Below, in pieces: positions 1,089-49,526 of a stretch of 55,228 nucleotides of DNA (the stretch's first letter is position 1; each line of letters starts with the position of its first letter). The position numbers were made by a program, and so were the translations under genes. Location of the stretch: the NCBI GenBank assembly GCA_028571455.1, contig JAPVVG010000208.1, forward strand, positions 1 through 55,228, written 5' to 3'. A model generated the notes under the pieces. It saw only the letters and a list, made by a program, of their open reading frames with translations. It had not been told where the DNA came from and ran no database searches. Source of the DNA: Desulfobacteraceae bacterium. GTDB lineage: Bacteria; Desulfobacterota; Desulfobacteria; Desulfobacterales; ETH-SRB1.

Positions 1089-1301
1089 GAATATCGAATA
1101 TCGAACAAGGAATTTCGAACAGCAGAAGTTTTTAAAAGCAATAAAACAATATTCTTCACTTCGACCTGCCCGCAATGCCTTTACGTTGTTCGTGTAGAAT
1201 ACCATAAAATGATGGTATGGTGACATTTATCACCTTAACACCAATTGCAATGCATGGCAGGCGGGTATTCTGCGGTTCCTTGTTCTGCGGTTCTGCGGTT
1301 C
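1089..1301. repeat. Inverted arms of 7-8 bp GAATATC/GAACCGCA tandem units, no gene inside
   Basis: Left arm GAATATC-GAATATC-GAACAAG-GAATTTC-GAACAGCA-GAAGT. The right arm, after removing 1165-1265, reverse-complements to GAACCGCA-GAACCGCA-GAACAAG-GAACCGCA-GAATATC-GAAGT. Confidence 0.8.
1165..1265 (+). mobile_element. 101-bp CCTGCCCGC...GGCAGGCGGG micro-insertion
   Basis: Same termini as 48868-48970 and 9567-9599. Splits the repeat unit TTCGA|TATTC with no duplication. Confidence 0.75.
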
Positions 1302-5207: not shown

Positions 5208-5493
5208 TCAATAATGAGAACTATTCATTTTCCTTGAAAACAAGACGATTAAGTGTTAAAGGCAAAAAAAACGTTCCACCACCATCAATCTATTCCATAA
5301 CAAACTGTATAAATTTTGGATGGAACAAATGAGGCTCAAATTTCTTATCCTGTCATGGTATGTCCACTGGGCTCATCCGGCCGGACTACAGGGAGTTTCA
5401 ATCCACACCCGCTTCAAAAGAGAAACCCGATAAATCAATCACAATATTCGACTACCACAGGCTTCTATCAAAAACAGGATGGAAAGTAACCCA

Positions 5494-5522
5494 CCTGTCT
5501 GCGTGCGGCACGCACAGGCAGG
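5494..5522. mobile_element. 29-bp palindromic micro-insertion CCTGTCTGCGTGCGGCACGCACAGGCAGG
   Basis: Hairpin; splits the His codon CA|T of the gene fragment. Confidence 0.75.
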
Positions 5523-5539
5523 TCGAATAGAGTGTCCCC

Positions 5540-5584
5540 CCTGCCCAGTTGAACCGGGTTCCCTTCCAGGGTGTTCAACCGGGG
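5540..5584 (+). mobile_element. 45-bp hairpin micro-insertion CCTGCCCAGTTGAAC...GTTCAACCGGGG
   Basis: Splits the Leu codon C|TG of the same fragment; no duplication. Confidence 0.75.
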
Positions 5585-5673
5585 TGTCCTCAGAACGCCT
5601 GAGGACCCCAAAGTTTGAATGGCTTACAAAGTTTTCTTGCCAATCGTAACGCTCTGTTCTATAATTCAACTCA

Positions 5674-7346: not shown

Positions 7347-7386
7347 CCTGCCCGCCATCGGCTTCGCCTTAGGCGAGGCGGGCGGG
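7347..7386 (+). mobile_element. 40-bp CCTGCCCGCC...GGCGGGCGGG micro-insertion in a repeat arm
   Basis: Removal restores CTTTGTG|TCTTAGTGCCTTTGTGGC, the arm type seen near 5850, 18797 and 24061. Confidence 0.75.
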
Positions 7387-8116: not shown

Positions 8117-8227
8117 CCCGCCTGCCATTGCAAGCTCGCCCGCCAGCCAAGCCCGCCCGGCATTCGCCTGAGGCGCAGCCGATGGCGGACGGGCATGGCG
8201 AGGCGGCCTGGGGCACGAGCGGGCAGG
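8117..8227 (-). mobile_element. Nested micro-insertion (three layers, 111 bp)
   Basis: Outer 18+15 bp are the exact reverse complement of the 33-bp element at 9567-9599. The innermost ~42 bp resembles the reverse complement of 7347-7386. Removal restores ATCGCT|TCGCTC (compare GTCGCTTCGCTC at 12771). Confidence 0.75.
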
Positions 8228-9566: not shown

Positions 9567-9599
9567 CCTGCCCGCTCGTGCCTTGCAATGGCAGGCGGG
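9567..9599 (+). mobile_element. 33-bp micro-insertion CCTGCCCGCTCGTGCCTTGCAATGGCAGGCGGG
   Basis: Splits ATCTGTGTTCA|TCTGTGTCC, the right arm matching GACACAGAT near 9512. Confidence 0.75.
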
Positions 9600-9640: not shown

Positions 9641-10561
9641 TTATTGCTCGATTAAGGCTTTACCGTGTTCATCGGATGGCAGTTCACCCTCGCGACCCAT
9701 TTTGGCTTTTTGTAAGTTTTCACCTGCCTTCAAATAATATGTTGGCCTGACCTCGATGGCCTTCTCAAAAGAACGAATTGCCTTATCCCGCTCTCCCATC
9801 TTCAGGTAAACAAACCCCATGTTATTATAAGCCTTTGATTCATCTCCGCCTTTTTTAAAAGCCTCCATTGCCAATTGGTATCTGCCAAGCTTGGCTAACG
9901 CCATACCCAGGTTATTGTAAATTTTGGCATTAGATCTGTCAATTTTTAACGCTTTATTGAAAGCCTGGACCGCCTTTTCATATTTCCCCATCAGGGAGTA
10001 AGATATCCCCAGGTTATTATATAAAAACCCCTTGCGAGGCTTCAATGCAATGGCGGATTTATATTCAAGAGCAGAAAGATTATATTTTCCCTGTTGGTCA
10101 TAAATAATTCCCAGTAGATTATGTGCCTTCCATAACTTTGGGTCCAGTTCAACAGCTTTGCTTAAATGCTTTACTGCTTCTTCATTTTTTTTCAAACGAA
10201 AATAAGCCTGCCCAAGCCCCTGAAAAGCCGGCGCATACGCCGGATCTTTATCTATTACTTTCTGAAATTCCCGAATGGCGGCCTGATCAGACTTGCCTTT
10301 GAGAAAAACAAGACCTTTCTTATACCGGACCCTTGTATTTTCTGGATCAAGCTTAAGATATTTATTATATTCTATCAGGGCAAGCTGGAGGTTCCCCTGG
10401 TTAAAGTAAATATCCCCTAATCTTTCAATCTCGGAACCTGACATGTTCTGCGCAGATAAATCCTTGCGCAAATTATTTTGTTGCTGGGCACATCCGGATA
10501 CTCCCCCGGCCATGACCATAAGTGTTACCAACATGTTGAAAAAAATATCTTTTTTGAACAC
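9641..10561 (-). CDS. tadD: TPR lipoprotein, TadD-like
   Basis: Lipobox VSGC, tandem TPRs (YNNLG), directly after tadC. Start placed at GTG 10561 because the track start (10582) lies in a repeat arm. Confidence 0.75.
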   Translation of the reverse strand: MFKKDIFFNMLVTLMVMAGGVSGCAQQQNNLRKDLSAQNMSGSEIERLGDIYFNQGNLQLALIEYNKYLKLDPENTRVRYKKGLVFLKGKSDQAAIREFQKVIDKDPAYAPAFQGLGQAYFRLKKNEEAVKHLSKAVELDPKLWKAHNLLGIIYDQQGKYNLSALEYKSAIALKPRKGFLYNNLGISYSLMGKYEKAVQAFNKALKIDRSNAKIYNNLGMALAKLGRYQLAMEAFKKGGDESKAYNNMGFVYLKMGERDKAIRSFEKAIEVRPTYYLKAGENLQKAKMGREGELPSDEHGKALIEQ

Positions 10562-10619
10562 TTTTATTAATAGTTCAGCCACAAAGACCCTAACCCGGAC
10601 AAACCGGAACCAAAAATAT

Positions 10620-11606
10620 TTACCCTAAAGCAGCTCCTTTGAATATTACCTCATAGATATTAATAACTGCCGGACCTAATATCGCTACAAACAGAGACGG
10701 AAAGATAAATAAAATTAAGGGAAAGATCAATTTTACCGGAATTTTTGCGGCCCTTTCTTCAGCCCGCTGATATCTCTGAACTCTCATGGTGTCTGAATAT
10801 ACTTTTAGAGCTTGTCCTACACTGGTGCCGAATTTATCCGTTTGAATAAGCAGCGTCGCCAGACTATTCACTTCATCCAGATCAGTTCTCATGGCAAGAT
10901 TTCTTAAGGCATCTTTACGCAACTTTCCGGCCCTCATTTCCAGGTTATAAAGTTTAAGTTCACCGCTTAATACTTTGTTATCCAATTCTATTTCTTTTGC
11001 AACCCGATTAATCGCTGAATCCAGGCCCATCCCTGCTTCCACGCAGACAACCAGAAGATCGAGTGCATCCGGAAAACCATTTAGAATTATTTCCTTTCTT
11101 CTGGCAATTTTAAATCGCAGCCAGAGATCCGGCATATAATAGCCTAAAATTGCCAGCATGGTAAGGATGGTCACCATTTGAGCCGCACTGATCGGAGCAC
11201 CAGGAATCAACACTCGATATAGAAAAACCAAAAACGCCGGAAAAAATGCAAGGAGTAATTTTGCCCCCCAGTAGACAGCTCGTGCGTTTTCCCGGTGTAC
11301 GCCCGCCTTAAGAAAAACAGGTCTCAATTTGGTATAATCTATCAATTTGTCAATAGGCCGTGTACGCTTACCTATATTGCCTAAAAAATTCAGAAATCGG
11401 GTTTGGATCCCCCCACGTGTTTGTGTGGGTATAGTTTCTGACGGCATCACTGCCGTTTCCCCGGCATCCTGCTTAATTTTCCCCAAGAGGATTTGTTTTT
11501 TTGCATGACTTCGCACATATATCACTATGCCTGCGATTGCCAGGACCAGGGATAAAAAGACCACACCTGAAATAATAATAGGAAAATATTCGAGTGAAAT
11601 ATTCAT
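10620..11606 (-). CDS. tadC: Tad inner-membrane platform protein TadC
   Basis: FPDALDLLVVCVEAGMGLD, QRAEERAAKIPVKLIFPL. Confidence 0.92.
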   Translation of the reverse strand: MNISLEYFPIIISGVVFLSLVLAIAGIVIYVRSHAKKQILLGKIKQDAGETAVMPSETIPTQTRGGIQTRFLNFLGNIGKRTRPIDKLIDYTKLRPVFLKAGVHRENARAVYWGAKLLLAFFPAFLVFLYRVLIPGAPISAAQMVTILTMLAILGYYMPDLWLRFKIARRKEIILNGFPDALDLLVVCVEAGMGLDSAINRVAKEIELDNKVLSGELKLYNLEMRAGKLRKDALRNLAMRTDLDEVNSLATLLIQTDKFGTSVGQALKVYSDTMRVQRYQRAEERAAKIPVKLIFPLILFIFPSLFVAILGPAVINIYEVIFKGAALG

Positions 11607-11680
11607 TATCTTTAATGACCTCTAAATATTTTTATAAAATTCAGACCTCGATATTTCGTTAAAAATCGCGTCTTTTTTTA

Positions 11681-11720
11681 CCAGTATCCAGTTACAAGTA
11701 TCCAGCATCAAGCATCCAGC
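11681..11720. repeat. CCAG(T/C)AT heptamer tract abutting the tadB stop
   Basis: CCAGTAT-CCAGTTA-CAAGTAT-CCAGCAT-CAAGCAT-CCAGC. Confidence 0.7.
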
Positions 11721-12688
11721 TACACTTTAATATTAACCATCCTTCTCATCACCAGGGCGCCTAAGAGCATCAAGAACAAGGCAACGCCACACATTATTCT
11801 TCCGACCGGTTCTATAAACAATATTTTAATATATTCCGGGTTAACAATAAAAAGGGCTCCTATTATAAAAAAAGGAAGAGCCAGAAGCACATACATAGAC
11901 AATTTTCCCTCGGCAGCCAGTGTTCTGACCTTACCGAACAGTTTATATCTTTCGCGGATGAGATAAGCAATATTCTCCATAATCTCTGCAAGGTTTCCGC
12001 CGGTTTCCTGCTGCAAAATCACGGCAATCACAAAAAAGTTCAAGTCCTTGCATTCTACCCGTTGGGCAAAATTTTTCAGTGCATCGGAAACACCAAGCCC
12101 AAAATTAATTTCGTCCAGGGTCATACTGAATTCCGTACCCAATGGATCATCAAATTCATCGGCTGCCATTTTCATGCCGGTTGAAAAGGCATGACCGGCC
12201 CTCAAGGAACGGGCCATCAAGTCCAAAGACTCGGGCAACTGAGCCTGAAATTTTTTCATCCTTTGATTTTTCTTGATGTAAAGATAAAGGAAAGGAAGGC
12301 TGCCTAAACATATCGAAAAGATCACAGACAGTGTTGTCCCTATTCTCAAAAAATAAAAGCCAAGAAAGCCGGCGCCTGCAAAAAAAAGAGCGAGCAATAT
12401 GAAAAAACCTGCGGGGAACCGGGCATTTGCCAGATATCTTAATCGATCCAGGCGCTCAATCATAGTAATATGCAAAAGGATTTTATTTAACAGCGGAATT
12501 TCGCTCAACACCCGTTTTCGCACAAGATCCGGCAATTCATCTATCTGTTTGGCGGATGAAATTTTCCTGAGTTGTTTTCGAATTCTGGCACGATCGGGGT
12601 TTTTTGAGTTTCTATAGGAATAAGTAATTAATTCAATGACCGATACAACTACGATAAAAATGCCGACTGTAAGGATAAGGATATTCAT
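11720..12688 (-). CDS. tadB: Tad inner-membrane platform protein TadB
   Basis: QLPESLDLMARSLRAGH, QQETGGNLAE. Start set at MNILIL because the upstream extension is repeat-derived. Confidence 0.92.
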   Translation of the reverse strand: MNILILTVGIFIVVVSVIELITYSYRNSKNPDRARIRKQLRKISSAKQIDELPDLVRKRVLSEIPLLNKILLHITMIERLDRLRYLANARFPAGFFILLALFFAGAGFLGFYFLRIGTTLSVIFSICLGSLPFLYLYIKKNQRMKKFQAQLPESLDLMARSLRAGHAFSTGMKMAADEFDDPLGTEFSMTLDEINFGLGVSDALKNFAQRVECKDLNFFVIAVILQQETGGNLAEIMENIAYLIRERYKLFGKVRTLAAEGKLSMYVLLALPFFIIGALFIVNPEYIKILFIEPVGRIMCGVALFLMLLGALVMRRMVNIKV

Positions 12689-12728
12689 TGTTTTGTCCTT
12701 TTGAGCATGAATTCTCCAAGAAATATAA

Positions 12729-13003
12729 AGATGAACGTCCAACATCGAACATCCAACGTCGAATAATGATGTCGCTTCGCTCCTCAAATTATTATTAAAT
12801 CGAATAAAAAAACCAATACGAATATTGAAAGACTATTTTTGGTTCTTTTCAGATGTTCATCTCTTTTTCCATTCAACATTCAACATTCGATGTTCATTTT
12901 TCTTCAGTCCCTCAGACCTCAGACCTCTGACCTCTGACCTCTGTTTCTTTATCTTTTCCCATTCATCATTCGATGTTGGACGTTCGGTGTTCGATGTTCA
13001 TCT
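12729..13003. repeat. Long imperfect inverted repeat of heptamer units with an internal CCTC(A/T)GA tract, inside the tad operon
   Basis: Left AGATGAACGTCCAACATCGAACATCCAACGTCGAATAATGAT; right arm reverse complement AGATGAACATCGAACACCGAACGTCCAACATCGAATGATGAAT; five CCTC(A/T)GA units at 12910-12943. Confidence 0.85.
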
Positions 13004-13013
13004 TTTTAATGGA

Positions 13014-14342
13014 TCATACTTCAAAAATCCTATCCGGATCGAATATTTCACGAGGAACGGATATACCTGCGACGGTAAATTTATCCAGAAACCTGGGTCG
13101 GACACCATGAAACTTGAAGTGCCCCTGTACCTTTCCGTCCTCGGCAACGCCGGTTTGCCTGAATGAAAAGATTTCCTGCAGCGTGATAATATTGCCTTCC
13201 ATACCGGTAAGCTCCTGGATGCTGAGAAGTTTTCTCGTGCCATCCGGAAAACGAGAAATCTGGATAATAATATCCAAGGCCGAAGAAATAAATCTTCTTG
13301 TAAACTCGTTGGAAATTTCCAGCTTGGACATAGCAACCATACTTTCCAGGCGCATTAGAGCATCCCGGGAAGAGTTGGCATGAATCGTTGTTAGAGATCC
13401 CTCATGCCCGGTATTCATGGCCTGTAACATATCAAACGCCTCTGCCCCCCGGACCTCGCCCACAACAATTCGATCCGGACGCATTCTTAAACTGTTTCTC
13501 ACAAGGTCCCGCGTCGTTACCTCGCCTTTGCCTTCAATATTCGCGGGCCGGCTCTCCAGCCTGACCAGGTGCTCCTGCTTAAGCTGCAATTCAGCAGCAT
13601 CTTCAATGGTGACAATCCGCTCTTCTTCGGGTATGGACTGGGAAAGGCAATTTAATAAGGTTGTTTTTCCGCTGCCCGTACCCCCTGAGATGAGAACATT
13701 CAATTTTGCCTTAACAATTCCCTGCATTATCTCTCCGATCTCTTTGGTAAATGATCTCAGGAGGATAAGGTCCTTTAACATAAGCGGATCCCTGCCAAAG
13801 CGACGGATAGACATAGTAGGGCCGTCTATGGCCAGAGGAGGAATGATAACATTGACTCTGGAACCGTCAGAAAGCCGGGCATCCACCATGGGAGAAGATT
13901 CATCAATCCGGCGTCCTACGGATGAAACAATCTTATCAATAATTCTCATCAAGTGGACATCGTCTTTAAACTTTGATTCTGATAGTTCCAGCTTGCCGAA
14001 TCTTTCTATAAAAATCTGTTTGTAGCTATTGACCAGAATATCAGAAATCGTATCGTCTTTAAGAAATGGCTCCAGGGGACCGAGTCCCAGCACTTCATCC
14101 TCTATTTCCGAAAAAAGATTTTCTCTTTCGGTTAAATTGAGGGGAACCCTGTTTTCCTGTTCCTCAAGAACCCGCTTCACCAATGTTCTGATCTGAGATT
14201 TGACAAGATTTTTATCCAGAGAATCAATCATCGTCAGATCCATAAGATCGAGTAAACTATCATGAATTCTGGTTTTCAGTTCAAAATAGTCATCCGATGC
14301 GCGTTCCCTGAAGCCAGGCGCTGTATCATAATCTAAACGCAT
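13014..14342 (-). CDS. tadA: Tad secretion ATPase TadA/CpaF
   Basis: GLGPLE, GGTGSGKT, TIEDAAEL, LRMRPDRIVVGEVRG, AMNTGH. Confidence 0.96.
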   Translation of the reverse strand: MRLDYDTAPGFRERASDDYFELKTRIHDSLLDLMDLTMIDSLDKNLVKSQIRTLVKRVLEEQENRVPLNLTERENLFSEIEDEVLGLGPLEPFLKDDTISDILVNSYKQIFIERFGKLELSESKFKDDVHLMRIIDKIVSSVGRRIDESSPMVDARLSDGSRVNVIIPPLAIDGPTMSIRRFGRDPLMLKDLILLRSFTKEIGEIMQGIVKAKLNVLISGGTGSGKTTLLNCLSQSIPEEERIVTIEDAAELQLKQEHLVRLESRPANIEGKGEVTTRDLVRNSLRMRPDRIVVGEVRGAEAFDMLQAMNTGHEGSLTTIHANSSRDALMRLESMVAMSKLEISNEFTRRFISSALDIIIQISRFPDGTRKLLSIQELTGMEGNIITLQEIFSFRQTGVAEDGKVQGHFKFHGVRPRFLDKFTVAGISVPREIFDPDRIFEV

Positions 14343-21206: not shown

Positions 21207-21259
21207 GCCACTAAGACCCGCCCGCCTCGCCTAAGGCGAAGCGGGCGGGTCTTAGTGGC
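21207..21259. repeat. Perfect 19-bp stem formed by repeat arms plus a 33-bp micro-element (21217-21249)
   Basis: GCCACTAAGACCCGCCCGC / GCGGGCGGGTCTTAGTGGC. The left part matches the reverse complement of the 7347 element and its flank. Confidence 0.8.
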
Positions 21260-22965: not shown

Positions 22966-23084
22966 CCCGTTAAATTTTTATCCAGTGAAACCATGTAGTT
23001 TCTTTTGTTTCACCGGGACACGATAGTGGCAGCCTGTCCCGTAGCTTCGGGAAATGGTACTGGGATGGAACGTATTTAACTGGG
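22966..23084. mobile_element. Stack of nested hairpin micro-elements
   Basis: Outer CCCGTTAAAT...ATTTAACTGGG; inner TCCAGTGAAA...TTTCACCGGGA (22981-23018) and CCTGTCCCGT...GGTACTGGG (23033-23064); all between two CTGAACC units. Confidence 0.65.
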
Positions 23085-24838: not shown

Positions 24839-25000
24839 GACAGGATTTATGCCCCAGTGGAATCCCCTGATAGGGGCCCGCGGAGCAGCATTCCATAGGG
24901 CAGGTATTTGCGCAAAGCCACCGTATCATTTCCGCCAGCGGCGGATTGGTCTTTCTCAGCTTCATCTGGAAGCTGAGAAAAAGATCGTGTAAATCCTGTC
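24839..25000. repeat. GACAGGATTTA...TAAATCCTGTC element with internal hairpins and nested micro-insertions
   Basis: 11-bp terminal IR; hairpin TTTCTCAGCTTC/GAAGCTGAGAAA; nested 24852-24904 (minus strand CCTG...GGGG) and TCCGCCAGCGGCGGA at 24931-24945. Confidence 0.7.
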
Positions 25001-48173: not shown

Positions 48174-48867
48174 GGAGTAAACAGAGCAAAGAATCCGTGG
48201 CAAAAAAATATGACGAAACCCACAACCACAATCCCCATCGCTTCAATCATCCTTGATGAAGATATCTATCCGAGAAAGGGGATCGATCCCAGGCGTGTCG
48301 GCATATTCGCCGAAAATATCAGAGATGGCTTCAAATTTGAGCCTATTGAAGTGGAGCCTGACCCCGGCAAGCCCGGCAGATACCGTCTGCTTGATGGCGC
48401 CCACAGATGGGGTGCCTACAAGACAACCGGGGTAACAGAGGTCGAAGCAGTCATAAAGAATCTTGATGGGGAAGATCCACTCCTCTACGCCGCAAAAAAA
48501 GCCATTGGCCCGAAACAGTTGACAGAAGATGAGGCAAGAGACACGGCGCGACGCGCATACACCAGAAACTCCAGTCTCAGCTCCGCGGATATCGGAAAGG
48601 CCATCGGACGCGCGAGACGAACTGTGAACTCTTACATAGCAGACCTTAAAACTATAACCCAGATGGGCATGGACATCAAGATATTCCGCATGAATCGCCT
48701 CGGTATTCCCCAGGACAGGATTGCAAAGAGATTGGGACAAGCCAGGGAGGTGATCCGTGACCATTTGGCGAAAATGGCAGTATTGCCAAATCCGCCAAAT
48801 ACAGATTTGTCCAAAGGCTTCACCGTTTCTCAGGTAGCAGAAAAACACGGCTGGACAGAACCAATGG

Positions 48868-48970
48868 CCTGCCCGCAATGCCTTTGCATGGATTTATCGA
48901 TGTGCCGGAATTGAGTGCCTGCAAATGCGGTTGTACTATATCAACTTAATTACAACGCATGGCAGGCGGG
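48868..48970 (+). mobile_element. 103-bp CCTGCCCGC...GGCAGGCGGG micro-insertion (frameshifting)
   Basis: Splits codon G|TC; shares the first 18 bp and most of the last ~23 bp with 1165-1265. Confidence 0.85.
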
Positions 48971-49092
48971 TCTGGTCGCTGGCTCTCGATAACAAAGAAG
49001 ACCTTGAAAGATTCAAGGAACTCGGCTGGGGATTGAGGACATGGGATCAGTGGGAATGGAACGATTGCGACAAAAGATTCGGAGATGATTGG

Positions 49093-49167
49093 CCTGCCCG
49101 CCATCGCTCTCGTCCAACGGAGGCAGTCAGCGTTGCTTATGATTTTCGCTCAGGCGAGGCGGGCGGG
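49093..49167 (+). mobile_element. 75-bp in-frame micro-insertion encoding PARHRSR...RSGEAGG
   Basis: Ends match 7347-7386; removal gives GAT TGG|CGG GAT TTT CAG (DWRDFQ), matching DYREFQ of the 5381 paralog. Confidence 0.8.
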
Positions 49168-49526
49168 CGGGATTTTCAGAGCAAACCGGCGGCAGAAGAA
49201 TCCGGCAAAGGGGCAATCCTTATAGACGACTACCTCCGGATTCTGAACAAAACCGGCTGGCAGCACACCCACATCATCCAGGCCCCCATGTCCGCGCAAC
49301 GCTTCAGCGCAGTGGTCGTCGCCGCAATGCAGAAAAAAAGAATACTTGGTGTTACAAGCAGGTATGTGATAGTCCTGAAACAAATTGGATAGGGAAAATA
49401 CAGCCGAAAAAATATGGGGGTCGGACCACGCTATCGGGCTGAAATAGCAGGGAAATCTTCTAAGATGAGGCTTTTTTGTAAAATGGCATAAAACAAAAGG
49501 AAAGTCAAGCAAATACAGACAATTAA

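Follow-up and report, generated by a model that had tools for sequence, protein, structure and literature searches.

Short hairpin elements tagged CCTG are gained at homologous sites in a Desulfobacteraceae genome with base-exact junctions and no duplication of the target. We read these hairpins as a variant of REP/SDR-type hairpin repeats with different ends. The window analysed is a stretch of 55,228 nucleotides, contig C208 of the 2.9-Mb genome G000 (G-numbers denote genomes and C-numbers contigs). A preliminary description of the window had listed eleven stretches as a single family belonging to a non-autonomous mobile class. All eleven are present at the positions given, and seven belong to one main family (at 1165, 7347, 8117 on the minus strand, 9567, 48868 and 49093, and a symmetric variant at 21217). 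The stretches at 5494, 5540 and 23033 fall into sister families instead, and the one at 24852 is a singleton. As for a mobile class, the elements are indeed multi-copy, non-coding and present or absent base-exactly, but REP/REPIN, RPE and SDR repeats are precedents.

The way in which REP-like repeats spread has long been an open question, and their exact gain or loss has seldom been seen directly. The family offers dozens of base-exact filled/empty pairs, strict handedness, clear ends, sister families and a recent amplification in a 0.7-Mb genome, and the search for its enzyme is therefore tractable. The same elements occur in very distant phyla and on virus-labelled contigs, which bears on the horizontal spread of non-coding DNA. 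They are also an annotation hazard, splitting or lengthening genes and breaking assemblies, and in metagenome-assembled genomes they may pass for introns, frameshifts or regulatory RNAs.

Ends, copies and distribution of the main family

The consensus ends of the main family in G000 are 5' CCTGCCCGC ... GGC(A/G)GGCGGG 3'. A genome-wide search, proposed earlier as a check, gave 93 complete copies in G000 and positive relatives, and it also separated at least four families that had been mixed in the original list. The family's 9-mer occurs 165 times in G000, both strands counted. Within the window, CCTGCCCGC with at most one mismatch is found 22 times, against a mean of 6.0 in 100 shuffles (sd 2.1, maximum 12). 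Copies span 24-126 nt with preferred lengths of ~33-41 and 101-104 nt; by class, 30 of the 93 measure 24-41 nt, 22 measure 101-104 nt and the other 41 fall outside both classes.

Each copy is one imperfect hairpin, in which two non-palindromic arms with their own ends pair around a free interior, and the short forms (24-41 nt) are a single hairpin. Fold z-scores of the DNA hairpins run from -0.4 to -5.1, and CCTG is unpaired in 6 of 11 top-strand DNA folds. Conservation is confined to the ends. Among 22 copies of 99-105 nt, ~16 nt on the left and 12 nt on the right reach 80% consensus, and interiors are 43-74% alike between subfamilies. The handedness of the elements is fixed, with CCTG on the left and ...CGGG on the right, and the termini are asymmetric, as had been claimed: the pairings CCTGCCCGC/GCAGGCGGG (n = 56) and CCTGCCCGC/GCGGGCGGG (n = 28) dominate in G000, versus 5, 2 and 0 for the symmetric ones. 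All four families recognised here have CCTG on the left, with CGGG or CAGG on the right.

Copies are mostly intergenic, and genes tolerate short in-frame ones; 15 of 68 copies lie inside open frames of at least 150 aa, compared with 1510 of ~2000 random positions. Main-family elements are non-coding, some are nested one inside another, and palindromic two-unit composites exist, uncounted, on C62, C46 and C126. The distribution is patchy yet cross-phylum. A survey of 24 sister genomes found the main family in 18, and a phylum-wide sample of 401 genomes had it in 29; near-identical forms occur in Saccharibacteria, other Patescibacteria and IMG/VR contigs. The Saccharibacteria genome G044 (0.7 Mb) has 12 near-identical copies, all in the context ..AAAACGA^AAAACTA..

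The whole window has no Rfam match at gathering score, the segment 48840-49190 has none at E up to 1, and the 103-nt element described below has no match in a plasmid collection. A literature search by the terminal 10-mers returned no bacterial-repeat paper among the matches listed; other literature searches surfaced papers on REP/REPIN/RAYT and on Thiomargarita MITEs, in which the main family is undescribed.

Insertion sites and the elements of the window

Flanks have 0 nt in common in 66 of 80 unique copies, in agreement with the earlier claim that target duplication is absent, and the 5- and 7-nt cases sit in heptamer arrays. When the flanks are joined, 43 of 79 copies match another locus across the junction. 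Clean empty sites at paralogous loci (ungapped, identity at least 93%, at least 20 nt each side) exist for 24 of 79, and 20 of these 24 are in non-periodic flanks. Tandem arrays of 7-nt units and sites of the form ...A^T(C)... are the favoured targets. An A precedes the element (base -1) in 52 of 80 copies and a T follows it (+1) in 53, so the observation that elements are mostly followed by T holds up. Positions +1 to +4 are T in 53, C in 37, T in 45 and G in 38 of the 80, a preference of 46-66% per position; at the clean empty sites, -1 is A in 14 of 24 and +1 is T in 17 of 24. Periodic flanks (periodicity at least 0.6) accompany 9 of 78 copies, eight with period 7 and one with period 9, compared with 2.6% of 1500 random sites chosen outside long frames.

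Targeting of hairpin loops was rejected as a general rule, with a flank stem of at least 6 bp in 1 of 78 copies versus 1.0% of random sites. Local GC skew gave no signal of a replication-strand bias (23 versus 34, p = 0.18), and no excision or insertion intermediates were observed.

The clearest window locus is a host gene at 48210..49392 (+), a decayed copy of a multi-copy gene for a ParB-N plus DNA-methyltransferase protein, which lacks the catalytic core and is split by a 103-nt main-family element at 48868..48970 (+; CCTGCCCGCAATGCC...GCATGGCAGGCGGG) that shifts the frame. The pseudogene matches ParB_N at E 8.8e-6 (26.1 bits, just under the Pfam cut-off of 26.3) and TIGR00180 at 1.9e-12 (47.3 bits, under the cut-off of 58.45). 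Matches to this gene number 17 in G000 and 27 in G002, and intact homologues exist. Excision of the element had been said to rejoin the frame. Indeed, the 103 nt are missing from four of the five homologues in the alignment, where the sequence runs ...GATGG|TCTGGTC..., the absence being base-exact in G041:C136, G002:C273, G002:C585 and G019:C183, with placement of the junction ambiguous by 2 nt (GG). The interior of the element is 74% like a copy on C217, 71% like one on C80 and 67% like the window copy at 1165.

A joint 48865->48969 that skips the 103 nt is present in metagenome contigs of X2, X13 and X15 (two DNA runs and an RNA library), and the filled form of the window locus is covered by contigs from two runs, the likely source and an independent one; all four runs were read as contigs, and joints at 90% likeness may stem from paralogues or other strains. 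Of the checks once proposed, the one for empty alleles gave base-exact cases in sister-genome homologues, paralogues and metagenome contigs.

The second element of this gene, 75 nt at 49093..49167 (+), is in frame, and its right side adjoins a host-gene deletion of ~410 nt. Excising it does not restore DW|RDFQ as had been proposed; that joint is a deletion junction, because homologues hold a methyltransferase core of ~410 nt between the flanks. For its relative in the same subfamily at C2:164-238, likewise 75 nt long, loci on C188, C58 and C140 give clean empty sites (ungapped over 60/60 nt, identity 95-96.7%).

A host fragment at 5360..5650 (+), a C-terminal piece that is a paralogue of the methyltransferase family, carries two elements of sister families. 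The 29-nt element at 5494..5522 (+; CCTGTCTGCGTGC...GCACAGGCAGG) belongs to a second family with 40 regex matches in the genome. The 45-nt hairpin at 5540..5584 (+; CCTGCCCAGTT...AACCGGGG) represents a small fourth family with 4 regex matches, and BLAST of the genome gives no copy of it elsewhere. Both sites are empty in five paralogues, whose translation GW(K/E)(V/T)TH-RIECP-LSSERL confirms that the two excisions restore TH-RIECP-LSSERL. The 5494 site is empty in C125 (two), C130, C62 and C133 and filled in C114 and G002:C64; the 5540 site is empty in six paralogues, C114 among them. The inserts in the methyltransferase genes of the window are ordinary landings in decaying multi-copy genes, not introns. 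We rejected the ParB-methyltransferase as driver and take it as a landing pad, because the number of its copies does not vary with the number of elements (76 elements and 2 matches in G020, 7 and 0 in G007).

The other main-family elements are scattered over the first part of the window. That at 1165..1265 (+, 101 nt) is intergenic and has a near-identical copy at C80:920-1020 (interior 90%). The short form at 7347..7386 (+, 40 nt; DNA fold z -3.8) has 41-nt relatives on C212, C266, C262, C162 and C58 (97.6%), and the 33-mer at 9567..9599 (+) recurs identically in sister genomes and in Desulfobacteraceae-labelled MAGs. The 111-nt composite at 8117..8227 (-) consists of an outer element of the 69-nt type that holds another insert inside: its ends (36 + 31 nt) are 100% identical to C187 and C141, and its inner part matches C263:1557-1601. 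The symmetric variant at 21217..21249 (33 nt, strand undefined; CCCGCCCGC...GCGGGCGGG; fold z -5.1) is identical over 26 nt to the right arm of 7347-7386, and its end pairing is rare (2 strand-readings). It lies at the centre of a flanking palindrome and, like copies on C218 and C63, resembles an insertion into a hairpin loop. Outside the main family, the 32-nt element at 23033..23064 (+; CCTG(C/T)CCCGTAGCT..GGTACTGGG(G)) is a member of the third sister family, with a copy also in G008:C93. Membership of the 53-nt hairpin at 24852..24904 (-; CCTGCCC...CTGGGG ends, fold z -1.2) is unproven, because a genome search returns its self-match alone.

Relation to known hairpin repeats

The CCTG-tagged hairpins are not a class without precedent. 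REP/REPIN repeats, CGTC-tagged REPs including RPE, and the SDRs of Nostoc have most of their traits. REP/REPIN repeats, as described together with RAYT (TnpA-REP) by Nunvar 2010 (PMC2817692) and Bertels and Rainey 2011 (PMC3116915), and further by Ton-Hoang 2012 (PMC3333891) and Di Nocera 2013 (PMC3733652), are likewise short G+C-rich imperfect palindromes in tens to hundreds of copies, mostly extragenic with occasional in-frame genic copies. In these accounts they also carry a fixed tetranucleotide tag at one end, form several families per genome and are patchily distributed, and single-strand, structure-specific mobilisation in trans has been proposed for them. The elements here differ in their tag, which is CCTG and not the GTAG or CGTC of those descriptions, and apparently in their build, one hairpin with its own ends and a free interior of up to ~100 nt in place of the REP doublet described there. 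No REPtron accompanies them, and the canonical RAYT of the genome is bracketed by its own GTAG REPs. Near-identical forms cross phyla here, and there are many base-exact empty sites, which for REPs are seldom documented.

The CGTC-tagged REPs, RPE among them, are also found in frame in protein genes and, according to PMC3733652, have no known dedicated transposase. Their tag and sequence differ from ours; here copies are mostly intergenic, and many genic ones break the frame.

The SDRs of Nostoc punctiforme, reportedly described by Elhai and colleagues in 2008, are said to be tiny hairpin-capable repeats set in arrays of tandem heptamers and nested in one another, apparently mobile and with no known enzyme. 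The association with heptamers is found here too (9 of 78 copies versus 2.6%; 11 of 12 in G044). SDRs measure 21-27 nt and are, in the account of PMC5861425, reported solely from Nostocaceae. By comparison, our elements are up to 126 nt long, differ in sequence and are hosted by a cold-seep lineage, Patescibacteria and virus-labelled contigs.

With IS200/IS605 elements and PATEs, as PMC6006769 describes them, they have in common the lack of target duplication, unlike ends, hairpin recognition and a preferred short flank. The bottom strand of the element follows ...CAGA and ends in ...CAGG. The elements known from that source have two separate subterminal hairpins, one per end, and require a fixed tetranucleotide as target, whereas here both ends form one hairpin and flank preference is graded over the 46-66% range. 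An autonomous parent with CCTG-type ends was not seen, nor a Y1 gene between such ends. Integron attC sites have the cores RYYYAAC / GTTRRRY and come in the context of an integron integrase. The ends CCTGCCCGC / GGCAGGCGGG, compared by eye alone, do not read as attC cores. DDE-type MITEs such as those of Thiomargarita (PMC4853749) are likewise small, non-coding, multi-copy, hairpin-capable and gene-disrupting, but as described there they have terminal inverted repeats and direct target duplications, which are absent here.

Candidate movers and competing readings

We think the chances about even that the CCTG-tagged hairpins are non-autonomous, REP-like selfish DNA, moved as a folded strand by a trans-acting enzyme, most likely of the Y1 HUH class. 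One DNA strand would fold into a hairpin with CCTG unpaired or in a T.G mismatch, and a structure-specific single-strand nuclease/ligase supplied in trans would cut both ends and paste the strand into single-stranded target DNA. The logic would be analogous to the 'peel and paste' of IS200/IS605 and to the scheme proposed for REP/RAYT. The enzyme would probably be TnpA-REP-like; the elements point to no particular gene.

More tentatively, and in our view somewhat improbably, the CCTG hairpins and similar GC hairpins of heptamer arrays in other phyla may form one widespread, unnamed superfamily of micro-transposons, whose folded strands are moved at exact ends. The mover could then be an 'orphan' TnpA-REP-like Y1 protein (subclass 2.1, or the short forms of Patescibacteria) or some other, unknown protein, and phylum boundaries might be crossed on phage-like DNA. 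Lengths of ~33-41 and 101-104 nt would reflect a physical length need of the transposition intermediate, and 7-nt arrays would either serve as single-stranded landing pads of choice or arise as by-products of integration.

That the window encodes no candidate enzyme, as stated earlier, agrees with genome searches for Y1, IS110 and RT, which give no match on C208. None of the 13 Y1_Tnp matches in G000 is bracketed by an element on both sides, and no autonomous parent was seen. The canonical RAYT mentioned above lies on C162. The multi-copy Y1-HTH genes, which correspond to subclass 2.1 / TIRYT in the terms used in PMC6006769, are bracketed by inverted repeats of their own, of the GGGACG type. 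The 12-copy genome G044 yielded a single candidate class, Y1/HUH genes, with 2 Y1_Tnp matches and none for RVT_1, IS110 DEDD or TnpB, yet these genes are bracketed by their own, different repeats. Co-occurrence of elements and enzymes had been suggested as a check, and across 41 genomes (G000 and 40 relatives) the Y1-HTH family is indeed present in all 20 that carry elements. However, it is also present in 16 of the 21 that do not, and loads are uncoupled (76 elements and 8 Y1 matches in G020, 0 and 20 in G015). Three Patescibacteria genomes have an element near a Y1 gene, at a distance of 94 nt in G051 and of ~0.8-1.2 kb in G045 and G044. This REPtron-like adjacency is suggestive at most, and the Y1 gene of G051 is flanked by palindromes of its own, of the AAGGACGTC type. 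Two virus-labelled contigs with 3-5 copies encode methyltransferases, a glycosyltransferase and Mtd_N proteins; a transposase was not found on them.

It is possible, if doubtful, that the elements are mobile DNA as described and the mover is not Y1/HUH; a nuclease or recombinase not yet characterised could move them, as could host repair or replication functions working on extruded hairpins. The elements are linked to no Y1 gene, and four of ten element-bearing Patescibacteria genomes have no Y1_Tnp match (G048 with 4 copies; G042, G046 and G049 with 1 each). For the CGTC-tagged REPs, Di Nocera et al. (PMC3733652) likewise found no dedicated transposase. Against this, no alternative candidate was found. 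A DUF559 gene, single in G000 and bracketed by a different palindrome, was rejected for the main family, and the ParB-methyltransferase fails by the loads given above.

Passive spread, with copies riding in larger repeated units (heptamer-array cassettes or duplicated selfish genes) or moving by gene conversion, is an unlikely general account. Nine 101-109-nt copies of one subfamily do have ~25 nt of flank in common on each side, 11 of the 12 G044 copies have ~14 and 11 nt of A-rich flank in common, and the window 75-nt element and its C2 counterpart have a common left flank. Because some subfamilies' copies have 10-25 nt of flank in common, some of their spread may be due to larger units that carry them along. 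However, the 20 clean-empty-site copies in non-periodic flanks sit in unrelated sequence, identical 37-nt and 41-nt copies occur in unrelated contexts, and nested copies occur. The flanks of the 48868 element are unlike those of all other copies and the element is simply missing in homologues, and in the cases examined the gained segment is bounded exactly by CCTG...GGG.

Movement as an RNA hairpin by reverse transcription, or intron-like removal from transcripts, is quite unlikely. It would fit the conserved T at position 3, which gives a U.G wobble on the top strand only, the better fold of the top strand in 56 of 74 copies (RNA parameters) and the RNA-library contig that lacks the 103 nt. 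The same joined form, however, is found in two DNA runs and in homologous genes of other genomes, and orientation relative to long open frames is mixed (6 same, 9 opposite). Three of five Patescibacteria genomes searched (G044-G046), including the 12-copy one, have no RVT_1 match, and the lack of an Rfam match speaks against a self-splicing intron. Very unlikely is insertion without target duplication by an IS110/IS1111-type recombinase with a bridge RNA: G000 does have one IS110-type gene, whose non-coding 3' part (contig starts C263 and C30) has a hairpin starting CCTGCCCGCC, but five element-bearing Patescibacteria genomes, that with 12 copies included, have no DEDD_Tnp_IS110 match, and the target sites are diverse, unlike those of site-specific IS110 insertion.

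Families and anatomy of the CCTG-tagged hairpins

The source draft genome (G000), in which the window forms contig C208, comprises 2.93 Mb in 267 contigs with 42.6% G+C, and the public runs containing the window stretch are metagenomes of cold seeps and marine sediments. The 9-mer CCTGCCCGC occurs 22 times in the window with at most one mismatch, against a mean of 6.0 in 100 dinucleotide-preserving shuffles, none of which reached 22. Across the genome, the 9-mer and its complement are found 165 times. A simple pattern search for CCTGCCCGC...GGC(A/G)GGCGGG recovers 93 complete elements, in length classes of 24-41 nt (30), 58-92 nt (30) and 101-104 nt (22), the other 11 being longer or composite. 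Nesting of elements within elements is frequent, with CCTGCCCGCCA^TCGC as a typical site.

The preliminary description named 11 stretches as a single family. The sequence bears out all 11 coordinates; pattern and copy searches keep seven stretches in the main family and place four elsewhere. The seven are those beginning at 1165, 7347, 8117 (minus strand) and 9567, the 103-nt copy at 48868-48970, the 75-nt copy at 49093-49167, and a symmetric variant at 21217. A sister family, CCTGTCTGCGTGC...GCACAGGCAGG, with 40 pattern matches in the genome, includes 5494-5522; a third, CCTGCCCCGTAGCTCCGGCAGATGGTACTGGGG and its variants, includes 23033-23064; and 5540-5584 belongs to a small fourth. The CCTG start is common to all four families. 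The stretch at 24852-24904 is a singleton and is not counted as a member, because a second copy is absent from the genome.

The main family begins with CCTGCCCGC on the left and closes with GCAGGCGGG (56) or GCGGGCGGG (28) on the right, with symmetric end combinations rare or absent (5, 2 and 0). The terminal stem therefore retains a T.G and usually also a C.A mispair, and the element ends are not interchangeable, consistent with the asymmetric termini first proposed. Structure-specific single-strand enzymes of IS200/IS605 and REP systems exploit conserved mispairs and unequal ends (PMC6006769, PMC3733652). In 6 of 11 top-strand folds with DNA parameters, exactly CCTG is left unpaired beside the stem, which fits the description of the REP GTAG 'tag' as unpaired bases beside the stem (PMC3733652). 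Among 22 copies of 99-105 nt, an 80% consensus exists only at the ends (about 16 nt left and 12 nt right); interiors are 43-74% alike between subfamilies, with a length spread within five bases.

Exact insertion, empty sites and target preference

Target duplication is absent, as had been claimed: 66 of 80 unique copies share 0 nt between flanks and nine share 1-2 nt, and the five sharing 5 or 7 nt all lie within 7-nt arrays. In a scripted empty-site test, the 30-nt left and right flanks of each copy were joined. The joined flanks match another locus of the genome across the junction for 43 of 79 copies, and 24 of the 79 have ungapped empty sites (identity at least 93%, at least 20 nt per side), 20 of them in non-periodic sequence.

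At 48868-48970, the predicted excision junction is confirmed. Four of five aligned homologues, G041:C136, G002:C273, G002:C585 and G019:C183 in sister genomes, read ...ACAGAAC.GATGG|TCTGGTC... without the 103 nt and are 77-86% identical in the 662 nt upstream; in the fifth, homology ends before the site. Placement is ambiguous by two G. The filled form is covered, with 0-2 differences, by contigs from two runs, the likely source run and an independent one. Two DNA runs and one RNA library have contigs with a joint that skips exactly 103 nt, although such joints, at 90% likeness, may derive from paralogues or other strains. In our view these contigs show that the empty form is present in DNA, and we do not read them as evidence of splicing. 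Both sites of the pair near 5.5 kb are empty in five paralogues (C125 twice, C130, C62 and C133), which translate GW(K/E)(V/T)TH-RIECP-LSSERL as predicted. In C114 only the first of the two sites is filled, and the two insertions are therefore separate events. The first insert is also present in G002:C64.

Excision of 49093-49167 yields DW|RDFQ as proposed, but this junction does not restore the original gene. In intact homologues the flanks are separated by about 410 nt (409 nt by alignment coordinates in G041:C136), a stretch that, by our reading of the alignment, codes for IFDPPYFD, a core motif of methyltransferases. The same subfamily has a related 75-nt copy at C2:164-238 that interrupts ...GATTGG^CCCGG... 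cleanly; its empty sites are in C188, C58 and C140. In the window, DNA was lost at 49167/49168 between the terminal GGCGGG of the element and a GGCGGG further down the gene, which suggests that the repeats promote microhomology deletions. The host gene (48210-49392) has decayed and belongs to a multi-copy family of ParB-N plus DNA-methyltransferase genes, with a second window member at 5360-5650 and diverged copies in C58, C140, C116, C59, C183, C72, C97 and others. Hairpin elements or deletions break several copies. Protein matches to the family number 17 in the source genome and 27 in G002, and none of the 39 other genomes searched has more than 4. As a driver of the elements the family was rejected, since its copy number and the element load do not go together. 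It resembles a selfish family in its own right, now decaying, and we interpret it as a landing pad.

Base -1 is A in 52 of 80 copies (background 0.285) and base +1 is T in 53 (background 0.289), the latter agreeing with the remark that most elements are followed by T; the preference extends more weakly to G-A^T-C-T-G. At the 24 clean empty sites, the counts are 14 and 17. After excision, 15 of 68 copies lie in open frames of at least 150 aa, compared with 1510 of about 2000 random positions. Six have the orientation of the host frame and nine the opposite, and frames of 546-686 aa stay open with copies of 33-39 nt. Flanks are periodic in 9 of 78 copies (period 7 nt in eight, 9 nt in one) and at 2.6% of sites drawn at random outside long frames. 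Hairpin loops are not a favoured target (1 of 78 copies versus 1.0% of random sites), and the orientation of the copies is unrelated to local GC skew (23 versus 34, p = 0.18). The commonest 10-mers of the genome come from 7-nt tandem arrays (GACCTCT/CTGACCT types) and from one repeat of about 100 copies, whose overlapping 10-mers assemble to roughly GTTTCAATCCACGCCCCCGCATGGGGAGCGAC; this looks like a CRISPR repeat.

Distribution and nearest known repeats

The short-form pattern occurs in 20 of 41 genomes searched (the source genome and 40 relatives); within the same family it is present in 18 of 24. A reversed control pattern gave no match in the 41. Across the phylum, 29 of 401 sampled genomes carry it, single genomes being heavily colonised (36 in G254); the reversed control matched once in each of seven. 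A scan of species genomes returned at least 120 stretches, many of them matching by chance in genomes of high G+C. Copies of the same subfamilies, often letter-identical, are found in MAGs labelled Desulfobacterales, Desulfatiglandales and Syntrophobacteria, and in Saccharibacteria and other Patescibacteria (MAGs labelled Doudna-, Levy-, Magasanik- and Nomurabacteria, one a 743-kb chromosome). An element on a single MAG contig could stem from contamination. In a 0.7-Mb Saccharibacteria genome this is disfavoured, because 12 copies lie on 12 contigs; ..AAAACGA^AAAACTA.. arrays host 11 of them. Virus-labelled contigs of at most 56% G+C carry elements in 42 of 118 cases, up to five per contig. 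One such contig with five copies (IMGVR_UViG_3300022846_000081) also holds, at 10459-13575, a 358-aa Mtd_N-domain gene in two identical copies, adjoining methyltransferase and glycosyltransferase genes.

The closest known kinds are REP/REPIN, CGTC-tagged REPs with RPEs, and the small dispersed repeats of Nostoc. The latter reportedly sit in heptamer arrays (Elhai 2008). The CCTG-tagged elements lack two features that define REPs, the GTAG/CGTC tag and the REPtron, and we therefore regard them as a REP-like variant and not as a REP member. CGTC-tagged REPs and RPEs likewise have no dedicated transposase (PMC3733652). DDE-type MITEs, including those of Thiomargarita (PMC4853749), have target duplications, whereas the CCTG-tagged elements do not. 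No description of a CCTG-tagged family was found in the literature searched.

Candidate enzymes

The source genome yields 13 matches to Y1_Tnp, a single IS110-type gene and two reverse transcriptases. All lie outside the contig of the window, in line with the earlier statement that the window encodes no candidate enzyme. A Y1/HUH enzyme acting in trans is, by mechanism and elimination, the best available candidate; none of the genes surveyed is tied to the repeats. A Y1 protein of about 340 aa (TnpA-REP-like) has at least eight copies, at C125:14290-15327, C169:400-1425, and in C27, C135, C3 and C29 among others. In the terms of PMC6006769 these proteins resemble subclass 2.1/TIRYT, which has a C-terminal HTH; the one scanned matched only Y1_Tnp in Pfam. 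GGGACG-type inverted or direct repeats of its own flank each copy. The family occurs in 36 of 41 genomes, 20 of 20 element-positive and 16 of 21 element-negative, and its load does not correlate with element load in the 41. The 12-copy Saccharibacteria genome has two Y1_Tnp matches, and searches there for RVT_1, IS110 and TnpB gave none. Six of ten element-bearing Patescibacteria genomes have Y1 matches and four do not, one of the latter with 4 element copies.

The canonical RAYT-like gene at C162:20386-21009 likewise has its own GTAG-tagged REPs on both sides (GTAGGTTGGGTT...AACCCAAC); gene and REPs form a separate classical REPtron within the genome. The single DUF559 gene (C46:1834-2151) was rejected as a candidate for the main family, since the palindrome on either side of it is a different one, CCCTCTCCCCAAGGGGAGAGGG with variants.

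Members of the CCTGCCCCGTAGCT... family lie in frame within two Y1 genes, adding a run read as NPENPACPACPV... in C3 and reading NPENPVNPV... in C29. By eye, C263:1-420 and C30:1-420 appear to begin with the 3' part of a transposase gene of the IS110 family, followed by about 330 nt of common non-coding sequence, with a hairpin beginning CCTGCCCGCC, that ends beside GATGTCCC-type motifs; this part may be the bridge-RNA region of an IS1111-type element. In the Saccharibacteria contig G051:C16, AAGGACGTCnGACGTCCTT palindromes at 2112-2142 and 2856-2885 bracket a 237-aa Y1 gene, and at most 260 nt from its 3' end lie a 53-nt CCTG-tagged element and, by eye, a tRNA-like sequence.
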